In this document: in pieces, positions 1 through 49,603 of the stretch
Position numbering within the stretch: the stretch's first letter is position 1
Layout: every line of letters begins with the position of its first letter
NCBI GenBank assembly: GCA_951406725.2
Contig: OX597816.1
Location: 91,884,001 to 91,948,000, forward strand
Length of the DNA stretch: 64,000 nucleotides
Direction of reading: 5' to 3'
Source: Octopus vulgaris
Lineage: Eukaryota
The notes under the pieces: generated by a model
Told to the model about the DNA's origin: nothing
Databases searched by the model: none
The model's input: the letters and a program-made list of their open reading frames with translations, nothing else
Program-made: the position numbers and the translations under genes

Positions 1-59
1 TCTGACTGTCAACTTGCTGATTGCACTTCTGAGAAATGACTTATACAGCCTTTACAAGT

Positions 60-235
60 CATTCCACAGTAACCAACAGATCACAGAGGGATCTGAGGAA
101 GGCAATACTGGTCACTGGTTACTAAGAGATCCAGCTTGATGAATACTAGGTATAGTGGACTTAGTCCTCTTAGCTAAGTACTTCTGAAGTTTTCTCATTA
201 GCAATATAGCATCAGTAATACTTCTTACTGGTACA
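60..235 (-). mobile_element. Degenerate RTE-clade LINE reverse-transcriptase fragment
   Basis: Minus strand reads approximately RSITDAILLMRKLQKYLAK, matching the STTDAIF-VRQLQEKYL region of RTE RT; boundaries approximate. Confidence 0.55.
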
Positions 236-278
236 AAGCTGATTTGTACCACTACCACCACCTCTTCCTCCTCCTCCC

Positions 279-431
279 CATCGTTCAACGTCCATTTCCC
301 ATGCCAGCATTTATTGGATGGTTTGACCAGAGCTGTCCTGCAAGAGAGCTGTCCAGCAAGAGAGCTGTCCAGGCTTCATTTGTCTGTTTTGGCATGATTT
401 CTATAACTGGATGCCCTTCCTAATGTCAACT
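279..431 (-). mobile_element. SINE/RTE-type 3' tail fragment
   Basis: catcgttcaacgtcc...catgccagcat...tggatgcccttcctaatgtcaac recurs at about 8038-8170 and, reversed with a (GAT)n tail, at about 6915-7022 and 5725-5772. Confidence 0.6.
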
Positions 432-1759
432 GCATCTTAATTCTTCTTTTAATCAATTGTGCTGTGGTTTTTTCATTAACTGACATAACTTGATCTAAAA
501 CTTCAATACCTCTGTAATTTCTTCTTTCTAGTGCACCTCTTTTGCCCTTATAAGAGTTGATATTGAAGTTCTCATGCCAGTGTTTGTGTATGACATCTTG
601 TACTACCTGATTGACTATGTGGGTAACTAGCTTGTTCCTTTCTCTGCCAGATATTTTAAGTATCCAGTTGTAATTCCTGATGGATTAGATGCCTTCCCTG
701 CTCTCTTACCATTAATTAATTTGTCTATTGTCTACCATAATGTCAATTTGAAAGGCTGGCCTCTGTTAAGTTGGGGGTACTGGATATGGGCAGATTTCAT
801 GCTATACTCTGTTTCACAAAGTTCTTCACTGAAGAAAATGGAGTGAGGGTGGAAGAGAAGTAGGATGATAAACGTTGTTGATGGAAAAACTGAATACAGC
901 TAGATCAAATTCTATTTCTCTTTACATAGGCAGCATAGCACAGTTGATAGGTGAGTAACAGATAGGAGAGTAAAGAAGAGAACAGTAGTTGGAAATTAAC
1001 AGGAATATAATAGCTGAGAGGCCTCTAAAGATATATTATACATCACAGCCTCCCCCACCATTGCCACCACCTTGTTCATTTGAGCAACTGCTTTTCCACG
1101 CATGCCTCAATGTGTGGATTTTCTTCAGTGTCTCACCACTCTGTATAATTGTTTGTCATCTCTTTTATGATGTTCCTCTTTCCTGAGCTCAGTTTTTACT
1201 GTTTTATCCCATGTCTTCATATGTCTCTCGTTTCCACGATCTTAGATGCTTGGTACTCTATATAGCTAACATTTTACATATGCACCACATGTATTTATCA
1301 GTGTAGTCTTCTCTCTTGCATCCTATGTCTGATTCTTTTATCCAGCTCATTAGTGCTCTGTCATTCATGAACTCTAATGTTTCACATCCAATGTGACATA
1401 CTTGCTTAATTTCTTCTCAGTCATTACAAATATTCAGCATTCAGAGCCCACGACTTACTATTATGCAGTATTGCACTTCATACATAAGCATCATACAATC
1501 TCTTTGTTACTAGCTGAAGTAATAGCTCCCTGGTCTTTCTTACTCTAAGTTAACTATACTTTTAGAAAACCTACCTCCAAAAGCTATCAAGTGCTGATTG
1601 TGAGGATTTATTTTATGCATATTGTTATTGTTAACTGCTCCTGTGATTTTACTATGTATAACATCTACCTTAACTGCCAGCCTGCTTGTGATCCCAGTAC
1701 ACGTACGAATCGCTGGTATACAGTGGTAACTCTGTAGGAAACTCTGTAGCCACTATGAC

Positions 1760-2093
1760 CTAGAGGACTGTAGTAAACAGGAGAGGTCTAACAGTTTTGT
1801 TGTACCCTACCTGCACACTAAATTTATTTAGCTACTCATTTCCTTAGTAACCATCAGATGGCAAAGACCTCTAAGTTAATGAATGCTAGATATAGGAATT
1901 TACTTTCAGTTAAGTGCCTTTCTTGCAGTTGTCCAACTGCAAAGATGGCATTGATAATAGTATATTTTCTTGGTACAAAGATGATGTGTATCTCATTTAG
2001 GTGAATTTGGTTTCTAATTAATTGTGTTATAACACTTCTTGTACATATGTTAGAAAGTTTCTTGGCTTCATGTCCTTTGCTTATACTTTTCAC
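1760..2093 (-). mobile_element. Degenerate RTE-clade LINE RT fragment
   Basis: ORF 1854-2093 contains FVPRKYTIINAIFAVGQLQERHLTESKFLYLAFINLE, similar to RT GF.PGRST.DAIF.VRQLQEK...LYLAFVDLEKAF. Confidence 0.7.
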
Positions 2094-4410
2094 TAGAAAT
2101 GCACATGCAGCTCATGATCATTGGTAGATAATTTATTGATTCAATTTAGAAATAGGCTGAATGCTATATACTCATGTTGAATTATTTGGTGTTTTGTTAC
2201 ATTATGTTAAAACAGCTTTTTTACTTTTATGGTTGATAAATTCAACAAATATACATGTATCAGATATTGCATGAACCTCAACAAATCTGTGAACATCCTA
2301 AAATAGCTTTGTGAGGTTTTCTATTTTGGCAAACACAGGTTTTGGAGTGAATTGCATGTTTTAATGATACTTTAGTGTTAGTTAAAGGTAGCTAATCATT
2401 AGCAAAATGCCAGAAAATATAAACAGTTATTTGAAATTAATCTGTGATGACTGTTACTGAATAAATATTCGACTGTCTCACATGATTGAAATCTGTTAAG
2501 GAGTCAAGTGATTCTTATGGAAAGCTTCAACATACATAATGTTACCACAAAGTTTATCCTCTAGTTCTTGACATTTGAATAAAAGCTGTGTATACTACAT
2601 TGTGAGAAGGCCAGCACCAAATGTATACTTCTAATCATTTCTCAAAACCAGTTCAGTGTTATTTATTTATTTAATTTTTAAAAGTATATTTCTTTTCTCT
2701 CATAACTGATTATATCTCTTTAATGATTGTTTATTAATATATTCATTTTCTCCTTCTCTGATACAAATTAGAGTTTGAAGCTAATTGTTATTTAACTGCA
2801 AAATCAATTTTAATAGGCAATGTAATAAATATTTTTTAACCCTTTTACTACCAACTTGCCTGATATTGCCCAAGGTTCTGTGATAGGAATTTCCTGTTCT
2901 AAAGTGATCTAATGTAAAACATTCCATCAAAATTCTATTTTAATTTATGTTCCAAACACCAGCTTAGATAATGACTTAGTTTTGGTAAATTCTTCATCAT
3001 TTTCAAAATTAATTGAAAGAAAGGCTGTGAATTTCAACAGAAATATGGCAACAGAAGGGCTATTTTGTATATTGCTAATTTCCTCATATCTAGCACTTGA
3101 TTATGATCCTACCTACATTTCAAATTATGAACCAGTTGATTATTACTGAAAGTTAGTTGTATTTGATATTCACATCAGGTTTATACCCTTCATCATTACT
3201 ATTCTCAAAACAACTCTTATGAGCATTATCAACTTATTGTTTTTCTATCTGTCAAGATAGTGGAATAAGGTTTAGAAATAAACTTTTCCTCATTCTTTAT
3301 TTACTATCATCTTCCTCTCGCTTGTTTAACTCTTTTGTACCAATTTCACCCTGAATTAAATATCACTTCTGGCAATTGTCTACTACTAACAAGCTGTCTA
3401 CAATTAACCTCTTCCCACCTTTCTTCTTAGTCTTGAGTGCTTGCTTTTCAGGATTCTATTGGACATCCAATGATTGTACTTCAGTCATTGCAGGACTTCA
3501 TTAGTTTTATCTTCTATTATTAACCATGTCTCATGGTGTAGATATTTTCAACATTACTTCTAATGTCAACTTTACATAAACAGTATCCAAACTGGCCCTC
3601 CCTCACTCAGTATATTAGTCATCATAGCATGTTGGAGTATGTAGTATGGTTCTAAAGCAGAGCCATTATGTAACTGCAACAAGTCTGTGGGGTGTGCATA
3701 GTAATTTTTTTGGCTACTTGCTTGCCATAAGATTACTCAATCAGCATTGACTTGTAGTTACATAACAACTTCACACAAACCTTTCATATGAGATTTTATT
3801 TCTCATATTCTCATAAGCACATGACTAGCATACGATTAGTAAGTTGTAACTTGCAAAGATTATTGAATATTTGAAATGAACTATTATCACATGCAGAAGA
3901 TGTAGTCACTATGAAGTAAAAGTTGGTATTGGTCAAGAGTTTAAGCCATTGTGCTATGCCCCTGGGCAAAATATATGAGCATAATTGCCACTGCCTGGCA
4001 ATTCATGTCTGAGTGATTTATTGTAGGAAGGGCTTCCACTTGTAAAAACTCCCTCTCTTCTCATTTAGTAAGGGCATCCAACTGTAGAACTGTTTCTGCT
4101 CTGTACCCTGTGCTAGTATAAAATTGTTCAGGAAATATAAAATGTACCTGTGTATTGTATTTTCAAATTTGAGGCATAATTCATTAAGTCTAGAAGTAGT
4201 CCATGTATCTCCTTGGACAAGCAGGCTACATAAATTATTCATTGTACAAGTATCTGTCAAGCATTGTTGTCATTGGCATTACCTCTATCACTGTCTTCAT
4301 TCCACATTTGGTTTTTCATGATGGTGTTGGTTGGGCAGTTCATCATTGTTTGAATTAGTTATTTGGAGTTAGTGCCTTTCACCTGGGTCACAAATCACTT
4401 TCCCTTAAAC

Positions 4411-4841
4411 TGTAGCTTTGAAGATTTCAAAGCGCAGTCAAACCAATTCTACTATATGGCTCAGAAACCTGGACGTTATCAAAGAAGCTTGAGAGGCGGT
4501 TGGATGGAACCTACACTCGCCTCCTTATGAGAGCTCAAAATCTCTCGTGGAAGCGTCATCCAACCAAAATGCAAATATATGGGAAGCTACCACCTGTGTC
4601 ATCTCTGAAATGTAGGAGAGTCCAGTTTGCTGGACATTGTTGTAGAGCTGAAAACGAGGCAATTTCTCTTCTCTGGAAGCCATCTACTCGCGATACAAGA
4701 GGTCGCACACTCTCCTACCCTGATGTAATCTCCAGGGATACAGGCATCCAGCAACAGGACCTCCGTATGATGGACCGCAAAGTTTGGCGTAGCATGGTAA
4801 ATTCCATTGTCTCAACCACGGTTGAACAATGATGATGATGA
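4411..4841 (+). mobile_element. 5'-truncated RTE-type LINE 3' end with (GAT)n tail and target-site duplication
   Basis: LLYGSETWTLSKKLERRLDGTYTRLL...RVQFAGHCCR...DRKVWR is a typical RTE C-terminus; the tail is gatgatgatga; flanking 11-bp repeat ttcccttaaac (4400-4410) and ttccctcaaac (4842-4852). Confidence 0.85.
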
Positions 4842-6605
4842 TTCCCTCAAACACTCAACTTTTGATATGGCTTCTACAGCTGGCTGCCTTTCCCATCATC
4901 AACCACTTCAAAAAGTACATTGGATGTATTTTATCATTGATAACAGCACTAAAGAAATTACTCTATCTTATATTGTCTTCAAATATCTATTCACTCATAC
5001 CAGAGAGGTTCTCTTTTTCCCTCTTCCTTGCATTGTCTCTATTCATTTGTTCTTGTCTGCCTAACTGGATGTGTAAAAAGGGATGTTTTCTGTTTTCTAT
5101 CACATCACCAGTGCAGTTGTGTAATTATCTCCTATCACTCTCTCTTCCTTTACATCAACACTCCTCTTCTCTCTCTTCCCCCTCCTATCACCTGTTTTCT
5201 TCTAACCTCCTCTTTAGCCTTTTTGTCCATCCATCTCCTTCCTCTTTTCACCTTGACCCTCTTTGGTTACACTATTGTTTGGTTTCTCTTCCATTACTCT
5301 TACATTCTGTAACCCACTTGCTCCTTATAATTCTGGTTTTCTTCTATCACTCTCTCCTTCTCTCAAACACTGCTCCTAGAGAGAGGTAGAGAGAATAATA
5401 GGATGGAAGGAGAGATGAAGGAGGAATTGAGAGAAGAAAGATAAGAAGGATGGCAGAATGATAAAAGAGAGACAGGATGATGAGAGTGAAGTAATAAAAG
5501 AGGGAAAATAATGGGGTGAGGGAGAGAATTAGTAAGTGATAGTTGAGAATATTGAAGAGAGAAAGCTGTAGATAGGAAGAACATGGTTAGTGGCATCATT
5601 TATAAATAATGTTCTAACTGTAGTCACCCCATCTTTATTGTGATCATGTTGTGTTAAGATTCTGATATTTTTCGGTCATGTATTTCTTATTTTATAGTCA
5701 GAAAGGAATTTTGTAAAAGATTCATGTCCAACCCATGCTAGCATGGAACAGGGGCATTAAATGATGATGATTTAACTTGTACATTGAACAAATCTGGAGT
5801 CAACTTAGACTCTCTTTTATCTTTGCCAGCTAGCTTCAGTTTTATCTTGTGACCATTCCCTCTGCTATGTTCAATGTCTGCAGATACTCCCCTCTAGTAC
5901 ATCAGTCAACCCTTCTGAGTAATATTATAACGTATTAGTCATTAAGGCTTACATTTTGATTGTTAATCTACCTCAAATTGATTATATATCTTTGTATGAT
6001 CTCAATGAATTGATTATGTGACTTGATTTTTATTTTTGTTTGGAACCATTTCACTTCACTAACATTTTCTTAAGGTAGAGTATGGTCACAACACCAGCAT
6101 CCTTCTCTGTCAATTTCTGAAATATGTGTGTATCTAAATGAATATGCTGTTGCCTTTTCAAATAGACATAAAGTGTAAGGCTTTTAGGTGTGCAAGATTT
6201 GGAAGTTATGATGTGCATGGCTTTTCCACATATATTATCAGCATAAAGGAAATGTACTACCTATGATTGAAAATTGAGACTAGGTTTATATCTACTTTTG
6301 TTGCCTTCACACTCTGAAGATAAAAAAGCCGTTGCTTATTGAAAGATACTATTGTATATGAAAAATCAATAAATGAGGGAAAGGTATATTAAGTTTTTTT
6401 CAAATTTGTAATCTATAGAGTAAATAAATCACTCTCTCTCTCTCTAGTCTTATACTACTCATATTTTTGTTATGATGTCTGCAAGTCTGTTTGCCTAATC
6501 AATGTTTAACCTGTTACCTATTCAGTCTGTTTGACTGTATATTGTTGTAAGTCTATTCCTAATAGCCTTCCTTATTCTAAAATTTCCACTGCAATGACCA
6601 TTGAG

Positions 6606-6636
<31 letters not shown>

Positions 6637-6657
6637 ATGTATATAAAATTTTGTATT

Positions 6658-7022
6658 GCAGACATAGTTATGTAGTTGGAAAGCTTATTTCCTGACCACG
6701 TGAGCTTGGGTTTTGTCCTACTGCACAGCACCTTAGACAAATGTCTTTTTGTAGTCCTGGGTCGACCAAGACCCTGTGAATGGATTTGGAAGATAGAAGC
6801 TATGTATATATGCATATGTGTACCCTTGTCTTGGTGGTTGTAAATGAGCATCATAAGTGACCATATTCATTTCCTGCCTTCCATGGTGAAGTATTGCCTT
6901 ACTTGGAAACAGGTGTGGGTTAGCAAAGTGAAGGGCATCCAGCTGTAGAAAATCTGCCTTAAATTCTCTATGACTCATACAAGCTTGTAAAAGTGGATGT
7001 GAAATAAATGATGATGATGATG
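6658..7022 (+). mobile_element. Degenerate tRNA-derived SINE with (GAT)n tail
   Basis: Head resembles the copy at 30404-30520 (gcaggcgtggctgtgtggtaagaagctt...gcaccttctgcaagtgtcttctactatagcctcgggtcgacca); ends in atgatgatgatgatg. Confidence 0.65.
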
Positions 7023-7983
7023 TTGTTTTGACCCTGCTTTTAGAATAGGTACACTTTCCCTGAAAATGAAAAGCTGGGATGGGGTGACCACGGCTAGAAC
7101 ACCTTATATCATAAGTCTGCACTATCAGGACTGATCTTGTTTGAAACAACAACTACCATTATTTCTGTCATTTCAATTTTTGTATGCTGTTATATGTTTC
7201 CATAGCCACCTAGCTCCAGTCATTACTCTTTTGCTTTATGTCATCATTGAGGTGTTGCATTTAAACATTTAATCTGTTTCATTCCAAATCTGTCTACTTC
7301 AGCTTCTCACTCCCAACTCGTAACTTTTGTCTGAATTGTAGTTGTATGTCTAGCGTATATTAACTGATACTTATAATGCAAACATTCTCACCTTGTACTC
7401 CATCTCTTACAAAATCTACAGACACAAAACATATTATCTTTTTCTATCCAATCATTTCAAGATCCCTGGCCTTTACTGTCAGCTCTTCGCTATATATACA
7501 GCATCTCACTTTTGTTGCATGCATTACTCAATGTAACTTTTTGTACAGAAATTATTTTGCTGCCAAGAAAGGTATCAGTTGTCTAATCTCCTCCCACTAC
7601 TGTAGATGCTGCTGTTGCTGGTTTCAGTATCCAAAACTAATAAGTGCATGATACAAAAAAATACATCTTATTTGCCCCTTGTTTATCAGAGATATGAAAC
7701 TTAGTCAAAAGCCTTCTCTGAGTCAACAAAGCCAATGGGTATATTCTTTGCAAAGTATATCTCTGGCATTTGTTTCACCAATTTTTCCTATCCTTTGTGA
7801 CAATGCCAGCTCATTTCTTATGGGAACAAGCCCTCTCAGTCAACCATTTCAATGAAGTGTGCTTGAAGGTATCCATTTGTATGTACCTCTGTTTAACAAT
7901 ATACTGGATAACTAGATATAGCGTATCTATACATAAATACATATATACATGCAGAAAATAAAGATCACACATATTGATGATTT

Positions 7984-8023
<40 letters not shown>

Positions 8024-9838
8024 GTTTAACATATATATTTAATGTTCATTTTCCATTCTGGCATCGGTTGGACAGCTTGACAGGAGCTGGCCATCCGGAG
8101 AGCTGTGCTGGCTTCAGTTGTCTGTTTTGGCTTGGCTTCTATGGCTGGGTGCTATTCCTTATGTCAATCACTTTACAAAGTGTAGTGGGTCGTTTTCTAC
8201 GTGGCACCGGTGCTTCTTAAATGGTACTGGTATGGGTGCTTCTTGGGTGTTACCAGCATGCCTGTGGCACCAGTATGATGTGTATATAAGATCATTGATT
8301 GCACTTTACTTTGTAGTTTTTGATGAAAGTATATTCATTCACAATTTTTTTTATGTTAGAATGCTAGTAAATTTAGCATTGACCACAGTTCTTATTTGAA
8401 GTTTTGATGAAACCAGAAAAGTTATTTGAAATATAAAAAAGATAAAAAGCTAAAAAAATGAAAATTTTCTTCAAAACATGAAGTCTGGTAATATAAAACA
8501 ATGAAGACGAGAGTATTGTGTGAATGAAACATTGTCAGACAATGAAATTTTTATTGAAATTGAATCAGTAGTAGAGTTAGCAGTAGTAGTAGTTATTGTA
8601 GCATTTAGTAGCATGTTAGTAGTATTAGAAATAATATGTGCAATAAAATGACATACAAAAGTCATAACTTATTGGCAATAAAATATTGAACAACCCTAGA
8701 GATTCATTCTTAAAAATGTGGGTTACCAGCTGACCACCACTGCTTCACTCACAGCACACAAAGGCCATTCACAGCCATTGGTGGTGGAGGGAAGATTGGT
8801 TAAAGTGAATGAGAGGAAAATGGAACAAAATCATCCTATAACATATTTGAAAAACTTTTATTTCTTTCAGAGTTGTTGTTGATTTTAATTTTCATCTATT
8901 TTTGTTGCATTTCTGATCATTAGTTTATTCTAAGTATTTTTTTCACACAATCACTTAGAAATCTTCTTGTTAATCTCAGTGTAAAATATCTTCAGCTTTT
9001 CTGAGTCTAAACTCACTTTTCTTCTTCAAGATATTTGAATTATTTTTATCCATAATTCTGAAACTGTAAAACACAACTGGGTCTTAATTTTACTGCTAAG
9101 TGCTCTACAAATTAGTGTAGCATGGTTCAAGAATCTATTTGATCCTGTTGCTGCATTGGAGCAGAATGGAAGAGTAACTGAAATAATTTTACTAATTTAT
9201 AATATTTGCTATTTCCGTGATAATTGACAAAGTCCTATTATTTTCTTGAATGATATTAAACTTAAGCTACTGAGTTTGTAAAAGTTCTTCCTATTGAATG
9301 GTTTGAATGTGTATTTTAATTGCTAGAATAATGTAATTTCTGATATTCCAACTAAAAACGTATTAAAAATCTTTTATAACTTGTTTATAAATTTTGTGCT
9401 GTTAGCTTTATTCCTAATTTTAAAGAACTGTTATAGATTGATTCGATAAGGTTTACTATCTTTGCAAGTATTTTCTCAAAGATACAGACTTCCAGCTGTG
9501 ATCTTATGAGCATATAGGCTACTCTGCAAAATTATTGAACCTGTTTTATCTAAAGGTAAAATAAAAAATGTACCTGATTTCTAGAAATCCTGAAACATTA
9601 TCTTTCTAATTGGGCTTTATTGATACAATTTGTATATTTTTTTGTACAAATATGTAAGTATCAAGAGTAAAAGGGTTAGAAGAGAGTTAATGACCCGCAT
9701 AGTTGGACCCTTGAGTTTTTCTCCTTATTCAGATTTAATTTATTAATCCACAAAATTTTAGAGCAAAGCGTAATTCTTTTAAAACAATTTATAAAGCTAA
9801 TATTTCCATTAAGGCTGATTTTCTTTTTTAGCCTAAAA

Positions 9839-9875
<37 letters not shown>

Positions 9876-12800
9876 GTTATTATTATTATTATTATTATTA
9901 TTCCATTATATATAATGAAGTTAGGTTCTCTATGTGGTGTCATTTATGAAAAATTAGTGCTTTAATCACTTGAGGCTTATTTCCTTTCAAACTTTACTCT
10001 TTTCCACCTCTTTATTTTTGTTGATACCAACATTTGGAATGAAATATAAAAACAAAAACAAAAAAAAATATATAAGTTCCATTTTATGCTCTCTGCAATG
10101 TTTTAGTTCAGGTAGGTGAGTGCATTATTTTACTGCATTGAAATCATATCTAATTCTCTCTGTAAACAGAAAACTTATCGAACTCTTTCACAGGTGAAAA
10201 ATCAAAATTTTCATTTTAGAAATATTAAAATCCATTTTGAAAATAATAAGCTACAGTAAAAATAGTTGGCTTAAAAGAAGATTGAAATCTTAGCAGTGAT
10301 TTTGAATGTGGTGAAATTATTTGTATTTTTCAAGAGCATTCCATTAGTGTTTTTAAAATCATTTTTTTTTCTCTTATATGGCTTGGCCATATAATATTTC
10401 CACTTTGAGTATGGTCTTGTATGAAATGTTGTGATCAGCAGCTATCTGTATCATTTACAGCAGAATCAATAATAAATATAATTTAAATCCAAACAGACCT
10501 ATGGCAGACCATATTACACTGTCATTCATGCATCCATTCATTCATTTTTCTCTTAATTCTTTCTCTCTTCAAAACAGAAATAATCACCTTAAGTCTGTGT
10601 GTGTGTGCATGCATGAGCCTGTGTATACATATGTTTGTGTGTGTTATTCTGTATTAAAAACATTTGATTCATTTTCAGAAAAAAGCAATGGCATTTGAAT
10701 ATTGCACCTATTGCAACAGAAGCATTGCCAAGACACAAAACTTTTTTTTTCAAATAATTGCTCACTCTCTAAAACCTTTATTGTCTTGTGACTTCTTCTA
10801 TCAAGCCTTGCAAATATAGTTTGCTTTTTTTATCAAACAACATACTGAGATGCACTTAAAAGACATTGCTATAATATGAAAATGATATCAATGTAGATCA
10901 GTATGAAAATGTATGTCTTGACAGTGAATATTATTGTGCCAGCTGCAATGAAATACAGAACTGTTTTGAAATAATTTTTTTTTATTTCAATGTTCATCAG
11001 TTAGAAGTTAACTTTTATTAGGACAGTTCTTGACAAAGAATACATTCAAATAGACATTTATGAGAAAAAGTTTATGATAAGTTTAGAGAGACATTTTATA
11101 AGGAAAACTGGTAGTAATATAACCTGCATATTGTTTAGCCTTTAAAACAAAGCAATATTGCAGTGGTAGGTATGTGCATTTAAATTATTACTCCATACAG
11201 AGTGGTAGATGTGTTCAACATATTGACAAAATTGAATTCACTACAACTAACATGTTTGAAAAGTTAACACCAAATTTCAGCAGATAGAAATTGGGTTCTT
11301 GTCAGTATTCAGTGGACATGCCTTCTAGATAGACAACATGGTTCTCCTCAGAGGTATTGTTGATTATTACTTATTCTCATCTTTTCAACACATTTTGCAA
11401 AGGACTAAATTATTGTCGCTTATTTTATATTTCTGCAAAGTTTAGTTTGTGCGTTTTTTCCTTTGTATTCACAGGAAAAGTAAAGAAAAGCCAGTTAATG
11501 TTTACACCCTTAACTTTTAGTGTGCAATTTCATAACAAAAAAGAGACATTTTACTTAGATTTATGTCCTACGATATTTAACAGTTTTCAATAATAGCGTC
11601 ATCAACAATTTGATGAAGTATTTTGTTATCATTTCTGCTTAAGAATCAAATCATTTTCTATAAGAGGGCAAGAGCCCCCACTTCCCTTATTAAAAAAAAA
11701 AAAAAAAAAAAACTTAGCCATTGATACCTAACAATTGCAACAGAAATGAAAGATGCTTCTTATGAATGCTTTAGACGTATGATATTACCTCTTGGAGGAA
11801 AGGTTTTTTTTTATTGTTAAGTTTTCTTATTGGCATATCTGAGATTCTTATGTTGTGAGCACACCGACTGATACTGTTAAGAATAAGCCAAGTTTCTCTT
11901 TGAATTGAACATTAGTTATGTTAAATTTTCCTTCCTCTCATCCATAAGACTATTGCACATGGTGATTTACTGTTTCAATTAAACTACTATTTGTTAAGTT
12001 TACTCATTACATCTGCCTCTCTGTCAGACTGAAATTGCGCATAATGTTGTGTGAATTATTTTCTTTATTTTAGTTCTTTTAAAAAAAACAACAAAAAAAC
12101 AAAAAAAGAAACATGAAATGGTAACAACTGATCCTTGTTTGAATCAATTGTTATTACATAATTTATGGTTCACTATATACAGTTAACTACCACATAATAC
12201 AAAAGAGAAACACTGAAGGAAAAAAAAAAAGAAATGTATTTTTTGAATTTGTTTTTTTTATTTTTGACTCGATTGTCAAATTCTAGATCTCCTGCTTTCA
12301 CTTGAGGATGTTGAAAAGGCAGACGTAAACTTAGTTGTTGTTCATTTAACTTACATTCTCTAACATTTAGGTTTCCAGTGTTTGCGTTTCTGATTTAAAA
12401 ATAGCACAACCATACAGTAATGGTGGTGGTAGTAATAGTAGTAATAATTAGTAGTAGAAGTGCTATACACTTTTGAAATTTTGTTTTTTAATATTTGATC
12501 TTTGATATTTAAATATTGTTTTTGTGAACTTTGTCAGAAGTTGAAATGACCATCTATCTTTGCTGTTTTACTGGAAAAGAATAATAGAAAGGAAATTTCC
12601 TTTGTGAAGATAACTCTCGTGGAAGTTAATGATTTTCTAAATTTTTAGTTTATGACACAGCCATATTGAGCCCTTCATTTATCTACTGTGCATTGTTGGT
12701 ATTCCTTATGTGAATGTCTAGTAAATTGTCTTATTGAGAGAATATTTTATTCTAGTTAGTAAAATGATGTGAGAATATAAAGTCTGGATTGAATTTTGTT

Positions 12801-15800
12801 TTTCTGCAATCACTAGCAAATTAGAACTTATTTATACTTCAGTAAATGGTTTTTTTTAGTGTTTTTGATAAATTTGCTTTTTATACATAAGCTCCTCCTT
12901 ATTGTTGGTAAGTTTCAATGACTAAGGTTAGCTAAATATAACACAACTGCCTGATTATGGGTAATCCTCAAAGTGAAATTGGATTGTGTGGCAGGTCAGT
13001 AAGATACAAGTGAGCCAATTCTTTGACATATTATCACACTATGCAATTGATTTTGCACTTTAGAATAAAAATAAAATCAAAACAACAATGACAAGAAAAA
13101 TTACAGTCTGAGCATTGAAATGGTAAAAAGTATAAATGAATTGTCTATTAAGTGTTTATTGCTTTCACTGGAAAAGTTCCAAGTTATGTACAAATAATCA
13201 AATTAATAAAAAGGCATGTAAAAACATTTAACTACTGATGTCAAAATTGTTCAAGATTTCGTGTAAAACATTTTTATTTTGAAATTATAAATATTTTTCA
13301 TGTTTTAATATATATAGAATTAGTTTTATTTTTGATGTTGGGATAAAGATAAAAAGTTTAATGCTTTGGGTAGATTTAAAAACATTGGGATTAAAAATTG
13401 GGGTGGGGAATAGTTTAAAATACTTTCTCATTTTTTTTTTTAAATAAAATTTGGATACCATGTGGAAATTTAATTACTGATGTTATCTCATTTAAAAAGG
13501 TTCTTCTATTTTTCTCAATGAAATTAATATATTTTAATTAGATCTTAAATAAGTAAAATTAAATTGTACAATCTAGTAAAAACACATGCTATCTCTGCAG
13601 GTGCTTTGGAATTTACATACATTTATGTATAATTGTATATTTATACATAGACATATGAATTGAGAGGATGGATGTTCTATCTACAAGTGCATACAGTTAT
13701 ATACATTAATACAATGTCTCTAATAACCTGAAACCAACTGAACAGATTTAAGAGAAGGTGTTTATTGTCGATATCATATTTTGATTGACTCTGACTCCTC
13801 TTTTATCAGGCATTTGTATTTTAGGTTTATAAAGCAAGCATATTTGACTAGTGACATCAGCAGACAACATCATTGAAACTAAATATTCTGTGTAAATTTT
13901 GATTTGTAGTTCAGCTACTGAGCTATGAAAATTATTGCTTCTCGAATGAGTACTGTTATTGCTTGTCGAATGGGAACTATAATAAAAAGATATCCCTGAA
14001 GAGCAGAATTTATATTTTTGAATATTTTTTTTTCTTTTAAGTTAAGAGCGAACTTTTCACTTTGGAACGAACCGACATTCTTTGTTCATTTACAGCACAG
14101 CCATGTTAACTTAACATAGGTGCTTTGAGAAAGTTGAACACATTTGTTTTTTTCAGTCAACATATATCGATGTTCATAAATTGTTTAATCGATGTTAATT
14201 ACAATTTCTCATCATAAGTTTAAATTTTAACATTTTCTTCACCTTATTTTATCCTTTATTTTGTAATATATTTTCCTCTGTAAAATATTTACAGAGTTCA
14301 CCAGTGGAAGAAATTTTTAAACACTCTGTTATTGCTCAGTGAATATTTAGTGGCAGTCTCATATTTTATATCAGCATGAAAATATATTGCTATAACATTT
14401 GTATATTTTTGCTGTACACATATGTATCCAGAGAGGTCATAATCTGTAAAATAAGACATCAAAGCAAAGATATATAAGGCCAGCTAAGGCTTATTAAAGA
14501 TTTTACAAAGACAATTTTCAGCAGAGAATATTCAATAAATTGCAGATTTTTAAAAGACAATACATTTTTTTTTTTAGATACTTTTTATATAGAATTAATT
14601 TTTAAAAATGTACAGTGTTAATTTTCATAAAACGTTTATATTGCTTGGAATTTAAACTTTATTTTAATATTATTTATATCTTTGAATTTTTTTTTTTTAA
14701 TTGGTTTCTCTTCCTTTCACCTTAGATAATTTCATATTCAGTATATTTGGGAAACTTAATTACTGCCCACTTTTTGTTTTAGAACAAGTCTTTTGCTTTT
14801 AACTATCATTTAGTATATTTCAGTATTTACCTGTTCCAAATCTTATACTATTCTTCTATATGTTTTTCTCATTTTCTCTGGAACTATTTTTATTTTCTCA
14901 TAATTTTTATATATATTATTTCTTTGCAAGTTACAATTGAATTTCTTCAATTTCATTCATCAGTTTCACTGTTCCAGATCTTTCAGTTTCATGCCCTACA
15001 ATATTTATCAAGACAATTCATGCTTTCAAATTTCCTAAGATTTCCATTCCTCAACATTTCAACTTGTCATTTTAAACTGAGGATTTTATTTCATCTGTTT
15101 TACTGATTATCTCTTTGCAGTGATTTATCATATTTAAACGATAATTTAATGTCAATTGATATATATTTTAAACTATTGTTTTTCTTCAGTTGATTAACAA
15201 GAGATCAATGAGTCAGTGATCATATTGATTTTGAACTCTGATCATTTAGTATTTAGTTTCAATGTTCAATCATTAGTGCTTATCATAGTTTCAATTATGG
15301 AAGACTCTTCTTTATTAAATCTCTTTTGAAGATTGCTACGTACAGTTAGTTTTTGCTTAATTTGCTTATTAATTAGAAGAATATTTTGAGATATATTATT
15401 GTGTCCAGAAGAGAAACCATTGTGGTCTTAAATATTTATTGCTGTAATTTCAACTTATCTCACTGTTTAATATCTTATCGAATAATAGAATTGGACAGGA
15501 AAAAAGAAAACATCACCCTTTTTATGTAAATGAGCCATTATAAAATTCTTTTGTGACTTAATGAGTCAAATACAACATTTATCATTTCTCTCATGTCTAG
15601 GAGGTAGACAAAAAAAAAAAAAAAAAAAGAGAGACCCCCTCCCTCCCCTTACAAAAACAATGAGGTAAGAAAAAAGGTGTTTTTTTTTCTAAGAATTTTG
15701 ATTTCATCTATTTTTGACCACATTAGAGGGTTTACATATATAACAAGAGCTTTCATTGGAATCTCCCATTCATTATTATGAACTCAGTAGTCGAAATAGT

Positions 15801-18099
15801 TGAGTTTGATTGATTCTGTTTCTTTTTTTTTTGACATGTTAATGAAATCTTTTTTTTTTTTTAATAGAAGTCAATTTGTAGCTAACAGTTTATTAAGGGT
15901 TAGCTTCTTCCTCCTTAGATTATTACCCCCACCTGCACCCCATTCAGATTATTGAAATGAAGCTTTTTTTTTGTTTTATTATATATAATTGAGCAAGCTA
16001 TGAAAAAAAAATGGGTGAAAAAGATAGTAGTGTATGGTCACCATGTTCAACGATAAACAGAATGAGTTTAATGTCAACCATAACAAGAATAACGTTGAAT
16101 TAGTGTAGAAATTCTAAGGTCATGCATGGAAGTCAGCAAAAAAGAGTATGAGGAATGAAAATTGCAGTTACCTATGTCAAAAGAAGTTGTTTGTGTAGAA
16201 ATTGTTATTATTATTATTAATATTATTATTATTATTATTATTATTGTATGACAAATAGTGTTGGCTGGTGCAAGGTATTTTAATGTGTTCTGGAAATTTT
16301 CAGAAAATCATCAAGTGGTGGTGGTGGGGGGTAATGAATTATTTCTTTGTTTTTAAAAATGTTACTTTCCCAATTGAGATGGTGGGATAATTGCTACTTT
16401 AGACAAGTAGTTCTTCAACTGTTCTTGCATATAATAGGTACTTCAGCCGTTAGTGTATGTAACAATGGAATGTCTCTCATCCAAGTTATGTTACCTAACA
16501 GCAAAACACTTAGGCACCTCAACTGTTAGTGTTACCTAACACATAACAGTTAGGTTATATCAGCTATCAGTGTATTTACTAATGAAGCACCAACTACATC
16601 AGTTGGTAGTAGCTTATAACAACTACATAAAGTCTTTAATTAAAAATAAAATAAGTAACATCTGATGGTTTTAGTTACACACACACACGCACACAAAATG
16701 TATGTTCCCTTAAAAGATGACATATCTTTAAAAGGAGTTAGTGTGTGTGTGTGTGTGTGTGTGTGTTGGGAGAGAGTGACTTGATGTAGACTGGTCATAA
16801 TGTGATTCTGAAATGTGAAAGAATAAATTCCTCTTTTGATCTACACTACTGGTCAAATAAATGAGCAACAGGTGTTTACCCACCTTTCTCTGGTTGTAAA
16901 CACCTGCTGATTGATATAATAAACTTGTGGACATGTCAGACTTTGATTGGGGGGGAAGTGATCAGTTAAGTGCCATTTGAAATTTGATTAACAATATCTC
17001 ATCTGTCTCCCCAGGAACAACAGCAGTGGCTTTATGAGCCAGTTGATACTGCTGTCTTGATGGAGACAAAAATGGAAAAATTGAATAGGAAAATGGGGAG
17101 GGGGGAAATAAAAAAAAAAAAACCATCAGTTATAGTTCATATTCTATGTATGACCATTTTCTTCAGTTTTAGTATTCATTCATTACTATTGCTAGGTTGA
17201 GTTTATTGCTTTTTGATGTATTCTCTTGCTCAAGGAGAATTCCATTTTTTTTCCTTCTTGTGCTTCCTCACTCTTCACATTGCATCCTCAATATTCTGAC
17301 AGAATCATCATGTTAATTATTTACGTATTCTATTATCGTTGTGTTTTTTTCTTCAACTTTCACAATTATTGTATAGTTTTTTGTTTTTTTTTCCTGTACT
17401 GTTTTCTTTTCTTACCACTGTTTTTAATAATTACCAGAAATTTTTTTCAGATTCCATGCAGCAAGGTTAATTGGTATTGCCAACATAAAGTAAGAGGGAG
17501 TTAGAGGGTGAGTGTGGGGGGGAAATGTTTTTTTTTTTATAGAGTACCTGTTAATATTTTTTTAAACTTTTTTTTTTCTTTGCTTTGTATTAATGGACAG
17601 TTGAACCCAGGTGGGTTTAATATTACTATGCTGCATTACCACAAGTTGTCTTCAGTCTGCCTAAAAAAAAAAAAAAAAGGATACAAAAGTTGATTAAAAC
17701 TATGTTGTAATACACATTGTTTTGATTGTACATATTGTGAAATTGGAACATAATAGGAAGCATCTAATTATAAACTCAGACGTTTTCATTAATGTTTAAT
17801 AGAATAGAGACCGTTAGAATGTTTAAAATAGATTGAATCTCAGAAATGGTGCTTTGCAGCTATCTGATTTGCTGAGGAATGTGTATTTGCTGACCTGTGT
17901 TCATCAGAATAGTTTTTTTAAAAATTTAGACATATTTATAACCAAAAATGCAACTCATTCTCTTTCAGGTTTTCTTAATCTTGAAAATGATATTTGAAAA
18001 TTTATGAAAGCTAATAGCAACTTTGAAAAAATAAAAAAAATATGGTAACCATTATCTTCTTGACTTATCATCTTACCTTGTCTTTATCTCTCTTTTTAG

Positions 18100-18183
18100 A
18101 AAAGGCATGGCAGGAACAGCATGAGGCAACTGAGGATCACTGCATGCATGGTAGGCTGTGTCGGAACCGTGGAGCTTGTACAG
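18100..18183 (+). CDS. Strawberry-notch/FORGETTER1-like protein, internal exon (phase 1-1): KAWQEQHEATEDHCMHGRLCRNRGACT
   Basis: Pyrimidine tract and AG at 18098-99, GT at 18184; open frame; W...CMHG..C.....CT matches the C-terminal zinc-binding segment of the SBNO family. Confidence 0.85.
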
Positions 18184-18658
18184 GTTTTGTTCATTTCTTC
18201 TTCAGCTAAAACATATAACAACATTTTATGGTTTAATTTGCTTAGAATATTTATTTCTGAATAAAACACGTGTGTGATGTTCAATGAGTGATTAGGAATA
18301 AGAAGGAATAGAGATAAAGTTTACGATCTGAAATAAGATAGCATTGTCTGAAGGAATTTTTTTTGTTATTTTTAAAGATTTTATCTAAAGAAATCTTGAT
18401 ACCTGTTTTAATGAAGTAAAGTCCATTAATTTAATTGTATAAGTGTATGTGTGCATGAAAAGAAAGTATGAGAGAAGAAACACTGCTTAATAATCTCTGA
18501 AAAGTTTCAGCCATTTTGACTATTTCAGCAATGATTAGCCTGGACGTCTGGTTGTTGAGATTGTATTAGATGTAGTAGTTTTAATTAACAGCAAAAGTAG
18601 TAATGATAACAATTATGCTTAATAACAAATGACAAACAAATTCTTTCCTTTTCCTTAG

Positions 18659-18764
18659 TTGGGAGTCGGTGTTATTTCATGCATCTTCTGTGTGGGAGTA
18701 TTATAACACTAATGTCAGTTTTGGAAGCAGTTATTGCTCGTCACTCATATCAAATGCATCTCAG
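18659..18764 (+). CDS. Strawberry-notch-like protein exon (phase 1-2): VGSRCYFMHLLCGSIITLMSVLEAVIARHSYQMHL
   Basis: ttccttag acceptor, ag/gtaggt donor; joins in frame to both neighbours; matches SBNO G.R.....VLCGSVL.VW..VE.VL. Confidence 0.9.
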
Positions 18765-19562
18765 GTAGGTTGTGAATTTGATTTGCTAAACTATAATCTA
18801 TTATCTCTTCTTACTCATGTTGTTTATAGTTTTCTTTTTCCCCATCTTTCTAATTATTATTATTAATTTTTTTTTGTTGCATTTAAATTTGTGAAAAAAA
18901 GTTATGTGAGATAATGAAAGTCATTTAAGACTGTAAACTTAGTGCAATTGAATTGTTGGTGATGTCTGGTATTAGAAGTTTAATGAGAATTTCATAGAAG
19001 AAATAAAAATAGCATTTAATACTTAAGCACAAACCTGAAATTGTGGTGGGTGTAGGGAGCAAAGTATCAGAAATCAGTCTTCTTCACTGAACACAAAATT
19101 ATAGAAAAAAGGAATTTCTGTTCTAATTTTTCTCATCTTTTATCTTACCTAATCCCTATTCTCTATCTCTACCTTCTGCCCTAAGTATGCCATCTCACTG
19201 CAGAGCATATTTTAATTTTGGCAGACACTCTGAACAGTTCTTAGTCTTTTACTCATGACTATTTCTGCAGTTAAGTATGCCAGTGCATCTGGTGCACTTA
19301 AATTTGTTTCTGTAATCAGTGTCAGGAAATGCAAAATTCTTTGAAATATTTTTTGATGCTGTAAGATATTTAGTTTAAATTACATTTACCTGTCACAAAT
19401 TACATTTACCTTTATTGTATGTAGATTACGGTAATCCAATTACGTTACCTGATACAAATTGCATTTATTTTTATAGTTTGTTGATTGTTACTTGTTGCAT
19501 TAAATGTAATTATTGTTACCATGCTTAAGGTTTAGTTCTGTTTTTGTTCTTTCTTTTTAAAG

Positions 19563-19716
19563 TAAAGCTGAGTCTTCCATTCGAGTTGTACGGATTCAAC
19601 TTAACAATGGTGAGCGTGTTGTTGGTATCCGTTACCCAGAACGTCTCATTGGTGAGGTTGAGAAAGTTCTCAGAGAACATCAGCTTGTCAATCAGTTGCA
19701 GATGATGAATAACAAT
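19563..19716 (+). CDS. Strawberry-notch-like protein exon (phase 2-0): SKAESSIRVVRIQLNNGERVVGIRYPERLIGEVEKVLREHQLVNQLQMMNNN
   Basis: tttttaaag acceptor, gttagt donor; IRVVRIQLNNGERVVGIRYP corresponds to the SBNO MQIVRL.T.DGQRIVG..IP motif. Confidence 0.9.
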
Positions 19717-19866
19717 GTTAGTATCCTTGCTATAATTTACCATATTCTCTATGAAATTTTATTTTTCTGATATGTTACTAGATATTTCTCTGTCATACTG
19801 TCTCTTTCTTTTCCTGTTTTTGTACTATATTTTTTATTGATTATATATTTTTGCTTTTTGTTTCAG

Positions 19867-20481
19867 TCATCAACGCAGACCAATGACACTGTTATACCAA
19901 ATTTTAATTCTTCATCGAACAAGTTCATCATTGAAGCTGCCTCTCCAGTGATTCCAAAATATGTTAACAAGGCATTTACTCCACAATTTAACATGCACTC
20001 GTTTTTCAAGTCTAATCCACGTAGTCATGTGATGCCGTCTTCAATGAGCAGAAGTTCATGTAAAGTAAGACCGATGGAACAAAATCTGGTCAATGATTCC
20101 AACAATCAGCTCATGCCATACAATAGTGCACCAGCACAACATTCCTTATCCATTGCTAGCAGTGCTACAAGTAATAATTTCAATAAAGGAGTGTCTTGTA
20201 GTGCTATTTGCAGCAGCAGTGAGAGCAGTATTACCAGTGATCCTTACAAAATGAACATGTCCCGAAAACGGCGTTTTAACAACTACAGCTTTGATAATTG
20301 CATTGATATGAATAGCAATTGCAAGCAACAAACTCTTGTGTCTCTTTTTGCTAAAAATACTGTCAATAGGCTGGAGAGTCCACTAGTAACTGGCCAGCAG
20401 TGTCCAGTATGCAGCATGAATTTTGAGCTGGGCACCACTAATGATCAGATCAATGCTCATGTTGATAACTGTCTTTTGTAA
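19867..20481 (+). CDS. Terminal exon of the strawberry-notch-like gene: Ser/Asn-rich tail with PIP-box motif, basic patch and C-terminal UBZ4-type zinc finger
   Basis: tttcag acceptor in phase 0 with the previous exon; open frame to TAA at 20479-81; QFNMHSFF, SRKRR and CPVCSMNFELGTTNDQINAHVDNCLL. Confidence 0.88.
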   Translation, partial: SSTQTNDTVIPNFNSSSNKFIIEAASPVIPKYVNKAFTPQFNMHSFFKSNPRSHVMPSSMSRSSCKVRPMEQNLVNDSNNQLMPYNSAPAQHSLSIASSATSNNFNKGVSCSAICSSSESSITSDPYKMNMSRKRRFNNYSFDNCIDMNSNCKQQTLVSLFAKNTVNRLESPLVTGQQCPVCSMNFELGTTNDQINAHVDNCLL

Positions 20482-28016: not shown

Positions 28017-28388
28017 TGGTGGCTCTTTCAGACATGCCATCGGTTGCACAGATAGCCATACTTAGTAGCTATGCCGTCGACACAAAAGTAGTACAAGTAG
28101 TCAAGGAACCTTCTGATGCTAATCTTCTACAGAAAGACCAGTATGTCTTATAAAAATGGGTTGAGGACAACAACATGCAATTTAATGCAGGCAAATGCCA
28201 ACCACTCCGCTACCAACTAATTAGTGTTCAGAAGTCACAACAACCAACCTTTGGACTAAAAGGAGCGGCAATCCTAGAATCACATACGGTGCATAATCTT
28301 GGGATCTATATGAGCAACGATGCCTTGTTTCACATGTATGTCACCAAGATGGTGGCAGTGTGCAGGAAAATGGCTGGATGGATTCTGT
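28017..28388 (+). mobile_element. CR1-group LINE RT fragment
   Basis: VALSDMPS...SSYAVDTK (YADD motif) ... WVEDNNMQFNAGKCQ ... NLGIYMSND; homologous to 54825-55170. Confidence 0.8.
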
Positions 28389-29062
28389 ATAGCTAGCAAG
28401 GGTGGCTATCTGAGTAGCTGAGGGAATGTCTGAGAGGGCCACTATGAATAGTAGTGACCCTAGGACAGTGCCCTGTGGAACACCACTTGCTATTTGTGTT
28501 TCCTTGGAGGTGGCTCCATTGGTCACCACTGCCTGACGACTAACTTTTAGAAAGTCGTGCAGCCGCTCTTCAAGTTTTCCGCCTATGCCGAGATCACGCA
28601 GTTTGTGACATATCATACCATAATCGACTTTATCAAAGGTTTTTGCAAAGTCGAGATATATCACATCCATACTTGATCATTTAGCTGCTGTTTTAACATC
28701 TAGTCGTAGTGTTACAAAAGCTGTGTTGGACAGCTTCTACCCATGCTGGGTGTCAGTCAGCATGTCATTTTCTTCAAGGAAGACGATTAGTTTTTTGCGG
28801 ACTATTCGTTCCATGACTTTGCTGATGTGTGAAGTTAGAGAGATAGACCAATAATTTTTAGTATCTACTCTGCTTCCTCCCTTATGGATAGGGCATATTA
28901 TCCGTTTCTTCAGTTTATCTGAAAGCTCTGAAAAAGAAGTTGCAGTGGTTTTGCAAGTGTTCGCTTGTACGATTTGAAAAGGACCGCTGGAAATCCACCA
29001 GGGCCAGCAGCTGAGTTTGTGTCAATCTCATCTGTGTCCAGTGTTACATCTCTTCAAAGTTG

Positions 29063-29235: not shown

Positions 29236-29559
29236 CATCAACTTTGAAGAGATGTAACACTGGACACAGATGAGATTGACACAAACTCAGCTGCTGGCCC
29301 TGGTGGATTTCCAGCGGTCCTTTTCAAATCGTACAAGCGAACACTTGCAAAACCACTGCAGCTTATTTTTCAGAGCTTTCAGATAAACTGAAGAAACGGA
29401 TAATATGCCCTATCCATAAGGGAGGAAGCAGAGTAGATACTAAAAATTATTGGCCTATCTCTCTAACTTCACACATCAGCAAAGTCATGGAACGAATAGT
29501 CCGCAAAAAACTAATCGTCTTCCTTGAAGAAAATGACATGCTTACTGACACCCAGCATG
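29235..29559 (+). repeat. 325-bp inverted duplicate of 28742-29066 around a (TA)n/(CA)n spacer
   Basis: Base-by-base reverse-complement comparison gives 4 mismatches and no indels. Confidence 0.95.
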
Positions 29560-29644
29560 TATATATATATAAACACTCATATATATATATATATATATAT
29601 ATACGCATATATATATATTCTCTTCTGTTTATTTCCTTGTGTTC

Positions 29645-29680
29645 CTTTCTGTTGAAGAGCGTAGGATCGAAACGTAAAAG
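29645..29680 (+). ncRNA. Minimal type-I hammerhead-like motif (variant core CUGUUGA) in a Penelope-like repeat remnant
   Basis: cttt-CTGTTGA-a-gagc-gtag-gatc-GAAAC-GTA-aaag; same family as 44252 and 44723. Confidence 0.55.
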
Positions 29681-29899
29681 ACTTTCTCACCTTCCCTGCT
29701 TGTTGTTTATATACCTCTCTTCGTCTTTTGTTTTTCTGTATATTTCAACTGTCTATATAATACATACATACATACACACACACATACACACACACACACA
29801 TATATATATACACACACACACAAACATATATATATATATACTCACACTATGTGTGCGTATATGTGCCCTTGTCCATATGCAATATATTAATAGATAGTA

Positions 29900-42051: not shown

Positions 42052-43125
42052 CAGGGGTTGGACAAAATAATGGAAACACCTATCATATATTTGAATTGTC
42101 TATAAAACCGTCAAAAACTTGTTTATTTTTATGTTTTCTGGTTTATTATTAGTGTTGCTTAATATGTTTTTCTAAAATTGCTATTTCTTTTCAGATATCA
42201 TCAGAAAAAGGTAATTAAAATTCATTCAAATGACAGGTCTATCGGATTTTCAAAGAGGTCAAATTGTTGGTGCTCGTATGGCAGGCGCTATTGTAATGAA
42301 AACGGCCGAAATGTTTAGTGTATCACAAAATTCTGTCTCGAAAGTAATGACAGCCTTTGAGAAAGAACAGAAAACTTCCTCATTGAAATAAAACTCTGGA
42401 AGAAAACCACTACTTTTAAAACAAACGTTTCAAAACGTTTAGAGTGGAGTAAAAACCTACAGAATTGGTCCCTAGAGCAGTGGAAGAATGTTATTTTTTC
42501 GGACGAGTCATCCTTTACTTTATTTCTGATCACCAGCCGAGTATACGTGTGGACACAGCCAAAAGAAGCATTTGACCCAGACTGCCTTCTTCCAACTGTT
42601 AAACATGGAGGAGGATCTGTGATGATCTGGGCGGGGGGGGGGGGGTCATTATCTTAGAAGTCTTCTGGCCCAACGGTTTCCCTCCATAGCAGAATTTAAT
42701 AGTCAAGACTATCTAAGCATTTTATCTTATCAAATTCATCCTATGGTTGCAGAACTGTTTCCGGAGGGAAACGCAATCTTTCAGAATGATAATGCACCAA
42801 TTCACACAGCTAAAGTTTTTACTGAATGGCATGAGAAACATTCTAGTGAAGTTGAACATCTTATCTGGCCACCACAGTCCCCAGATCTCAATATTACTGA
42901 ACATTTATGGTGCATTTTAGAAAAACAAGTAAGGAGTCGATATCCTCCACCATCATCACTACAAGAACTGGAGACTGTTTTTACTGAAGAATGGACAAAA
43001 ATTCCTCTGGAAACAATTCAAACTTTTTACGAGCCCATACTTCATAGAATTCAAGCTGTAATTACTACCCCATATTAAAAAAATTGTTTGAAATATTAAG
43101 GTGTTTCCGTTATTTTATTCAACCC

Positions 43126-49474: not shown

Positions 49475-49529
<55 letters not shown>

Positions 49530-49566
49530 ATACATACATACATATATATATATATGTATGTATGTA

Positions 49567-49603
<37 letters not shown>

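Follow-up and report, generated by a model that had tools for sequence, protein, structure and literature searches.

Whether a gene that databases call 'strawberry notch homolog 1' is an ordinary member of its family, and what the tail at its end would do, is the question raised by a stretch of the Octopus vulgaris genome (assembly GCA_951406725.2, contig OX597816.1, positions 91,884,001 to 91,948,000, forward strand). This window of 64,000 nucleotides contains, at positions 18,100 to 20,481, the 3' end of a gene of the strawberry notch (SBNO) family whose last exon codes for two motifs resembling the PCNA-interacting peptide (PIP) box, named here PIP1 and PIP2, and for a putative ubiquitin-binding zinc finger (UBZ). 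A first-pass annotation, made from the sequence alone, had taken the product for a distinct SBNO paralogue wired into DNA-damage tolerance. The gene structure, the paralogy, the conservation of the motifs and the replacement of UBZ by UBA in algae are established here, and from them we infer a function in several steps: a Snf2-like SBNO ATPase of an ancient branch would be recruited to ubiquitinated PCNA at stalled or damaged forks through its PIP-like motif and its finger. We give this reading a probability of about 0.55.

Gene structure and transcript joints

Four exons with AG/GT borders (18100-18183, 18659-18764, 19563-19716 and 19867-20481, forward strand) join into a single open frame of 318 codons and a stop, which corresponds to residues 1182-1500 of P0001, the 1500-residue RefSeq protein 'strawberry notch homolog 1' of Octopus sinensis. 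The three joints, which remove GT..AG introns of 475, 798 and 150 nucleotides, were seen in transcript-like contig sets of all four runs, from four studies. None of these runs was recorded as RNA, three being guessed to be RNA and one having no recorded type; their transcript nature was judged from the spliced GT..AG joints and from zero cover over unique intron stretches of the locus L007. The one open frame and the joints bear out the four-exon splicing proposed in the first-pass annotation, including the attachment of the last exon to the SBNO exons, and the four tail motifs it had named translate at the coordinates listed below. The contigs also span an intron of 18,873 nucleotides, joining exon 18100 to an exon further upstream whose end is at L007:9226. 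A tblastn search with P0001 gave no block, and hence no upstream exon, in window positions 1-18099, and 28 further blocks in the 50 kb upstream of the window. The link from the helicase exons to the tail is made by overlapping contigs and database models, not by one full-length read.

G000:C3, about 91,834,232-91,883,226, before the window: upstream exons coding for AAA_34, Helicase_C_4 and most of the SBNO alpha/beta domain (tblastn of P0001)
1..18099, +: 3' part of the 18,873-nucleotide intron (contigs bridge L007:9225 to window 18098)
18100..18183, +: coding exon, including the Cys/His cluster C-x-H-G-x2-C-x5-C (18141-18179) of the SBNO alpha/beta domain
18184..18658, +: intron of 475 nucleotides; read-through gives the annotated tail-less isoform X2, with its stop at 18207-18209
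18659..18764, +: coding exon that completes the SBNO alpha/beta domain region
19563..19716, +: coding exon for the final strands and the long helix of the folded C-terminal region (predicted local distance difference test, pLDDT, 87-97 in the model of the orthologue P0003)
19867..20481, +: last coding exon, 204 codons and stop; the tail with every motif
19933..19983, +: conserved segment E-x3-P-V-x2-K-x3-[KR]-A directly before PIP1 (E in 89, P in 82, V in 92 and A in 96 of 105 rows)
19984..20007, +: PIP1, QFNMHSFF; family form by profile P-x-[TS]-[ILMV]-x-x-[FY]-F, then mostly Lys
20263..20274, +: basic patch RKRR
20326..20349, +: PIP2, QQTLVSLF; animal-only form Q-x-x-[ILMV]-x-x-x-F, without the aromatic residue at position 7
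20401..20478, +: terminal CCHC finger C-x2-C-x15-H-x3-C with N-x-H-x-D-x-C; helix of RAD18/UBZ4 type, longer loop

Over the full protein P0001, Pfam finds AAA_34 (404.5 bits), Helicase_C_4 (343.5 bits) and SBNO (72.7 bits), in this order and above cut-offs of 27, 30.5 and 24, respectively. The motifs of helicase superfamily 2 (Walker A, DExH and III-VI) are nearly invariant across 89 aligned relatives. As to the SBNO-family domain reported by the first-pass annotation, the family and the C-terminal part of SBNO were found as described, with the helicase domains lying upstream of the window; the family call rests on the full protein, given that Pfam run on single window exons detected no SBNO domain.

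The RefSeq name would fit an ordinary SBNO1 gene whose tail is a chance or mis-joined piece. So would the tail-less isoform X2 (1217-1221 residues), which is annotated in three Octopus records (P0418, P0420 and P0421) and ends in intron-encoded residues without the PIP/UBZ tail. This explanation is scarcely credible: the joints occur in four of four runs, the same tail is found from sponges to amphioxus and in algae, and the canonical gene lies elsewhere, on C1. It is refuted by the contig joints, the conservation of the tail and the tree described below. The intron that X2 would retain (18184-18658) was covered in all four runs, at a contig depth of 6-24 versus 120-248 for the joint. Because the next intron, after exon 18659-18764, is also partly covered in three runs, an unspliced precursor is as likely a source of this cover as a regulated X2 isoform.

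At the other end of the gene, the first coding block (G000:C3:91834232-91835158, L003 region; residues 1-309 of P0001) codes for a Ser/Thr-rich extension, with 23% Ser and 15% Thr in its first 290 residues. This extension is found in both X1 and X2 records and is absent from the other orthologues shown.

A second SBNO branch

The octopus genome (G000) contains two SBNO loci, the window gene on C3 and a canonical gene on C1, which are 41-70% identical in their matching core blocks.

G000:C1:115585560-115626640 (L009-L013), -: canonical sno/SBNO gene, placed with sno by the tree

Homologues were collected with residues 900-1300, which gave 1037 proteins at E 1e-10 among 7988 scored candidates. 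The best 120 were listed and sorted by name and rank into 66 animal and 54 other rows. For the main tree (40 rows, 934 columns, tails excluded, unrooted), rows were picked for named diversity from these 120 and from long canonical rows, the C1 row being a patchwork of tblastn pieces. Lamprey, carp, whale and two streptophyte algae, one of them with PHD and FGT1 zinc ribbons, stand in for human SBNO1 and Arabidopsis FGT1. In this tree, the C1 gene groups with Drosophila sno, the lamprey, carp and whale SBNO rows and a Nucella protein, and adjoins the two streptophyte FGT1-like proteins. Grouped with the window gene are 15 other animal proteins, among them a further one of Nucella, and nine green-algal or unnamed ones (Shimodaira-Hasegawa-like approximate likelihood ratio test, SH-aLRT, 100); Nucella thus likewise carries one gene of each branch. 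The same split was obtained in a 23-row subset under a mixture model, with an SH-aLRT of 100 under two models. An all-animal clade, in which the 29 animal rows were forced together, was rejected by the approximately unbiased (AU) test, which was chosen after the tree had been seen (p-AU 2e-52). A rough FastTree of 143 rows also separates the 120 homologues from 23 canonical rows, with low support (0.66) and three animal rows outside the animal clade, and is not used as main evidence.

By these sequence comparisons the window gene is a true member of the SBNO family and not an orthologue of sno, SBNO1 or FGT1, so that the distinct paralogue of the first-pass annotation is upheld by the second locus and by the split in the tree. 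The paralogue is much older than that annotation supposed. The split between the two branches likely predates animals and plants, a duplication being the simplest reading of the unrooted tree. Horizontal transfer has been raised for Sno (PMC2770060) and may, instead of an early duplication, be the source of the distribution of the branch.

Named homologues among the best 120 of 1037 come from sponges, Trichoplax, cnidarians, molluscs, annelids, nemerteans, bryozoans, echinoderms, amphioxus and green algae. Although these 120 rows extend as far as algae, those with names include no vertebrate, arthropod or nematode. From these three groups, rows named in the canonical search were placed in the tree, and every one of them belongs to the canonical branch. 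Since the rows of these groups in the tree are all canonical and none is named among the best 120 homologues, the paralogue was likely lost in vertebrates, arthropods and nematodes. One member of the P0077 cluster, labelled Diacronema (Pavlova) lutheri, groups inside chlorophyte rows; it is possibly mislabelled or a contaminant and was not counted as a haptophyte.

Proteins of this branch are already in databases under the names SBNO1, 'FORGETTER 1-like', 'UBZ2-type' or 'UBA domain'. Genes called 'SBNO1' or 'FORGETTER 1-like' in molluscs, cnidarians, echinoderms and amphioxus thereby receive a corrected annotation, as a different orthologous group. A literature search found no description of a second SBNO branch with these motifs; subscription journals were largely outside this search, and the supplements of PMC2770060 and PMC5040591 may hold such trees.

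Drosophila sno, vertebrate SBNO1 and SBNO2 and Arabidopsis FORGETTER1 have the same three Pfam domains in the same order. Compared with these canonical proteins, the window protein belongs to a separate branch and adds a tail with PIP-like motifs and, across the branch, a UBZ or UBA; compared with the FGT1-like P0363, it has neither PHD nor zinc ribbons. The Cys/His cluster of the first window exon, a possible metal site to judge from its residues, was found as C-x-H-G-x2-C-x5-C in 61 of 66 animal and 42 of 54 other homologues, and in a looser form in 16 of 27 canonical rows.

Conserved motifs of the tail

For the PIP1 region, a profile built from 54 animal rows, octopus excluded, was matched (12 bits or more) by 61 of the 66 animal rows, by 45 of the 54 others and by none of 27 long canonical rows, of which 16 reach the end of the SBNO domain; the octopus sequence scores 27.4 bits. 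All but one of the 106 matches carry the triad [ILMV]-x-x-[FY]-F, on which the register was set. In these 105 rows, position 1 is Pro in 94 and Gln in one, that of octopus, and position 3 is Thr or Ser in 103. The octopus motif itself fits the consensus Q-x-x-[ILM]-x-x-[FY]-[FY] as given in PMC5773155. The 'consensus PIP box' of the first-pass annotation is therefore correct for the octopus letters and for the conservation of the motif in homologues; at the level of the family PIP1 is, by its residues, a non-canonical box, because Gln occupies position 1 in only one of the 105 rows. Gln is described as helpful and not essential for PCNA binding (PMC8191301). That PIP1 is a motif of the REV1 or MLH1 type was considered less likely since Pro stands at FF+2 in 41 of the 105 rows.

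PIP2 was found in 41 of the 54 finger-bearing animal rows with the pattern Q-x-x-[ILMV]-x-x-x-[FLM], and in each of them a non-aromatic residue (S, M, C, A, L or T) stands at position 7. The second PIP of the first-pass annotation is thus a recurrent motif, restricted to animals and lacking one aromatic residue. Of 20,000 shuffles of the last 204 residues, 0.7% produced a canonical PIP pattern, 0.15% the finger pattern and 9.4% the loose PIP2 pattern; at this last frequency PIP2 needs its conservation in order to count. The basic patch RKRR, which would likely be part of a nuclear localisation signal, has its counterpart in similar basic runs that precede PIP2 in most animal tails shown. In Bugula (P0070) the finger is absent, and the tail closes with a fully canonical PIP at the PIP2 site.

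The terminal finger, C-x2-C-x14-16-H-x3-C, occurs in 54 of the 66 animal and 25 of the 54 other homologues, and was found in none of the 27 long canonical rows. All 79 fingers have Asn two residues before the His and Asp two residues after it, as in RAD18. The N-x-H-x-D-x-C pattern was taken from the RAD18 alignment, and we take it to be a signature of UBZ4. The best PDB sequence match is the RAD18 UBZ (E 0.023, with a four-residue gap), and RAD18, WRNIP1, the UBZ4 of Pol kappa and the UBZ2 of FAAP20, all of them CCHC fingers, are among the PDB matches. The helix of the finger aligns with N-x-H-x-D-x-C of RAD18, and the spacing from the second Cys to the His is 15 residues versus 11 in RAD18, a loop four residues longer, as in FAAP20. 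In Pfam, no RAD18-type model was listed and the best match is UBZ_FAAP20 (19.7 bits, below the cut-off of 25). The UBZ4 type named in the first-pass annotation thus stands for the CCHC ligands and the helix residues, the loop departing from it; on this evidence UBZ4 with a longer loop appears a fair typing. An automatic UniRef label calls one orthologue 'UBZ2-type'. That type is defined by a DxHxAxCL motif and a C-terminal Trp (PMC4267625) and was rejected here, the finger having neither the motif (Asn before and Asp after the His) nor the terminal Trp.

In 16 of the 54 other rows, a UBA is found at the C-terminus instead of the finger, and no row has both. This is a pattern count to which one row was added from its Pfam label, and Pfam placed UBA over the cut-off in both proteins tested. 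The named rows among the 16 are chlorophytes: core chlorophytes (P0074 and P0092 among them) have the UBA, and the finger is retained in Micromonas and Ostreococcus. That two unrelated ubiquitin-binding folds share one terminal slot is the strongest sign that selection keeps ubiquitin binding. The first-pass annotation had asked for conservation of PIP and UBZ in orthologues, and both the motif and the finger prove to be kept.

Conservation reaches 17 residues upstream of PIP1. In two models, of the Hydra orthologue and of the C-terminal part of the Tegillarca protein, this preceding segment has a pLDDT of 80-97; it is thus predicted to be ordered and likely packs on the folded domain. The AlphaFold2 model of the Hydra orthologue, based on an 89-row alignment, has a mean pLDDT of 84, with the linker below 50 and the finger at 87-91. 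PIP1 and PIP2 are predicted as short helices in the Tegillarca model, in agreement with that of Hydra. In the ESM Atlas, no usable match was found for residues 1245-1500.

Such an ordered segment would also suit a PIP1 that is no ligand of PCNA. The 28 conserved residues would then fold back as a latch, structural or auto-inhibitory, onto the SBNO alpha/beta domain, or bind another hub for paired aromatics, and only the ubiquitin reader would be real. The reach of conservation beyond the motif, the predicted order in single-chain models and Pro instead of Gln at position 1 would be in keeping with this, as would a score of 0.39 obtained on PCNA by one unrelated control peptide. Conversely, both models show the [ILMV]-x-x-[FY]-F triad as a short helix, which is also the form taken by PIP boxes, Gln stands exactly at position 1 in the octopus lineage, Bugula has its fully canonical box at the PIP2 site, and there is a weak docking pass on PCNA. 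We hold the latch to be quite improbable.

The docking follows a proposal of the first-pass annotation to model the PIP peptide with PCNA, carried out here on a mussel pair. A 33-residue Pro-type peptide of Potamilus (1096-1128) scored 0.59 on Potamilus PCNA versus 0.39 for the best control, which lends weak support; the runs agree in at least 88% of contacts, and the pLDDT of the partner is at least 54. In the calibration, to which peptides do not belong, 51 of 78 solved and 2 of 108 mismatched pairs attained the mark, and scores at or below 0.60 comprised only 5 of the 78 solved pairs and all 4 mismatches that passed. The pass may reflect memory of solved PIP-PCNA complexes.

A proposed action at ubiquitinated PCNA

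The first 27 Foldseek matches of the Hydra model are all Snf2-type ATPases, for example Chd1, CSB, RapA, ISWI and Rad54 (E-values from 1e-11 to 2e-9), so that a DNA translocase is weakly favoured over an RNA helicase. A derivation of Sno from SNF2/SWI2 ATPases has been described (PMC2770060). A PDB sequence search with the Hydra orthologue returned two nanobodies only and no SBNO-like structure. The model of the C-terminal domain gave no fold match at E 0.001; its best Z of 5.1 (root mean square deviation 4.4, 90 aligned residues, RNA polymerase subunit L) is within the common range and was not interpreted.

In the proposed mechanism, the finger very probably binds ubiquitin. PIP1 would bind PCNA weakly on its own, and ubiquitin on PCNA or nearby would add affinity, a step that seems fairly probable by analogy with the Gln-less boxes of Pol eta, iota and kappa. 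Since PIP1 follows an ordered segment, the motor would be held close to the clamp. There, as in ZRANB3, it might translocate on double-stranded DNA and remodel the fork or displace proteins, for which we see even chances. A role in DNA-damage tolerance is suggested by this domain grammar, the direct docking computation being weak.

Several known proteins share parts of this design. ZRANB3 likewise combines a motor, one or more PCNA motifs and a ubiquitin-binding zinc finger, and its fork reversal needs PIP/APIM, NZF and translocase activity (PMC5594246). By analogy, the window protein likely works like ZRANB3 without being one: its motor is of the SBNO family, it has UBZ or, in relatives, UBA rather than NZF, and no HNH nuclease or NZF was detected in a Pfam scan of 18 proteins at E 0.05. 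The Y-family polymerases eta, iota and kappa share the combination of a weak Gln-less PIP with a ubiquitin-binding domain (UBZ or UBM), which is the design of translesion synthesis polymerases (PMC5773155), whereas here the cargo is an ATPase and position 1 of the PIP is mostly Pro. ERCC6L2 is likewise a SNF2-type ATPase with a C-terminal atypical PIP (PMC12003248). It belongs to another family, and its box keeps Gln and alters the aromatic spacing, whereas the SBNO box has canonical spacing and usually no Gln.

Several points weigh against an action at the clamp. Pro at position 1 of PIP1 in 94 of 105 rows is without precedent found, and the main text of the PIP library paper PMC8191301 never uses the word proline, nor was a Pro example seen in it. 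PIP1 is predicted to be fairly ordered without PCNA (pLDDT blocks of 90/68 and 90/80), which could mean docking on its own domain. The docking pass gave no interface, concerns a mussel pair and not the octopus one, and ignored alignments. The Foldseek matches have a template modelling (TM) score of about 0.3 over the query and identities of 9-16%, and Ski2- and RIG-I-like RNA helicases follow further down with comparable E-values. Of the 66 animal rows, 12 lack the finger; several of these are truncated or chimeric models, and in two nemerteans and two bryozoans the loss may be real. Among the 54 other rows, 13 carry neither a UBZ nor a UBA. Both kinds of domain also recognise ubiquitin on histones, RNA polymerase II and other proteins. 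No experiment was found on any member of this SBNO branch, and its canonical relatives act in transcription and chromatin (PMC5040591).

These relatives make it conceivable that the protein is itself a regulator of chromatin or transcription like its paralogue, the finger reading ubiquitinated histones, stalled RNA polymerase II or chromatin factors. Contact with PCNA would then serve the restoration of chromatin behind the fork and not lesion bypass, as in ERCC6L2 or CSB. FGT1 binds promoters and the SWI/SNF and ISWI remodellers (PMC5040591), mouse Sbno1 protects the genome through gene expression (PMC12289961), ERCC6L2 with its atypical PIP acts on centromeric chromatin (PMC12003248), and nucleosome remodellers and CSB head the Foldseek matches. 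Yet all 27 long canonical rows lack the tail, which only this branch has kept, and the helix of the finger shows the Asn/Asp pattern of RAD18, a type known from DNA-repair proteins (PMC4267625). We consider such a regulator unlikely.

A broader and more tentative proposal, which we hold to be somewhat less likely than not, is that of an overlooked damage-tolerance motor pre-dating the split of animals and plants, in which a Pro-type PIP and an exchangeable UBZ or UBA would read ubiquitinated PCNA and the motor would remodel stalled forks. It would have been overlooked because vertebrates, flies and nematodes appear to have lost the paralogue. According to PMC5040591, no molecular mode of action had been demonstrated for the SBNO family, and a sister branch wired to PCNA and ubiquitin would offer a concrete and testable substrate for the SBNO motor. 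If true, the damage-tolerance reading would reveal the SBNO core as a DNA translocase, and the branch would add a new ATPase to the short list of those acting at ubiquitinated clamps. The exchange of UBZ and UBA and the change from Pro to Gln in octopus would be natural experiments on the tuning of clamp affinity.

Apart from the SBNO gene, five open reading frames of the window (4422-4832, +; 28341-28676, -; 29280-29897, -; 32608-33759, -; 49151-49648, -) are, by eye, presumably fragments of reverse transcriptases of the long interspersed nuclear element type. A Pfam scan of 4422-4829 found no match. A further frame (42626-43078, +) is taken, also by eye, to be a fragment of a Tc1/mariner-type transposase. 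Elsewhere in the genome, the main PCNA gene lies on C2, and a degraded PCNA-like copy on C1 (L016, G000:C1:143990260-143990391) is probably a pseudogene.

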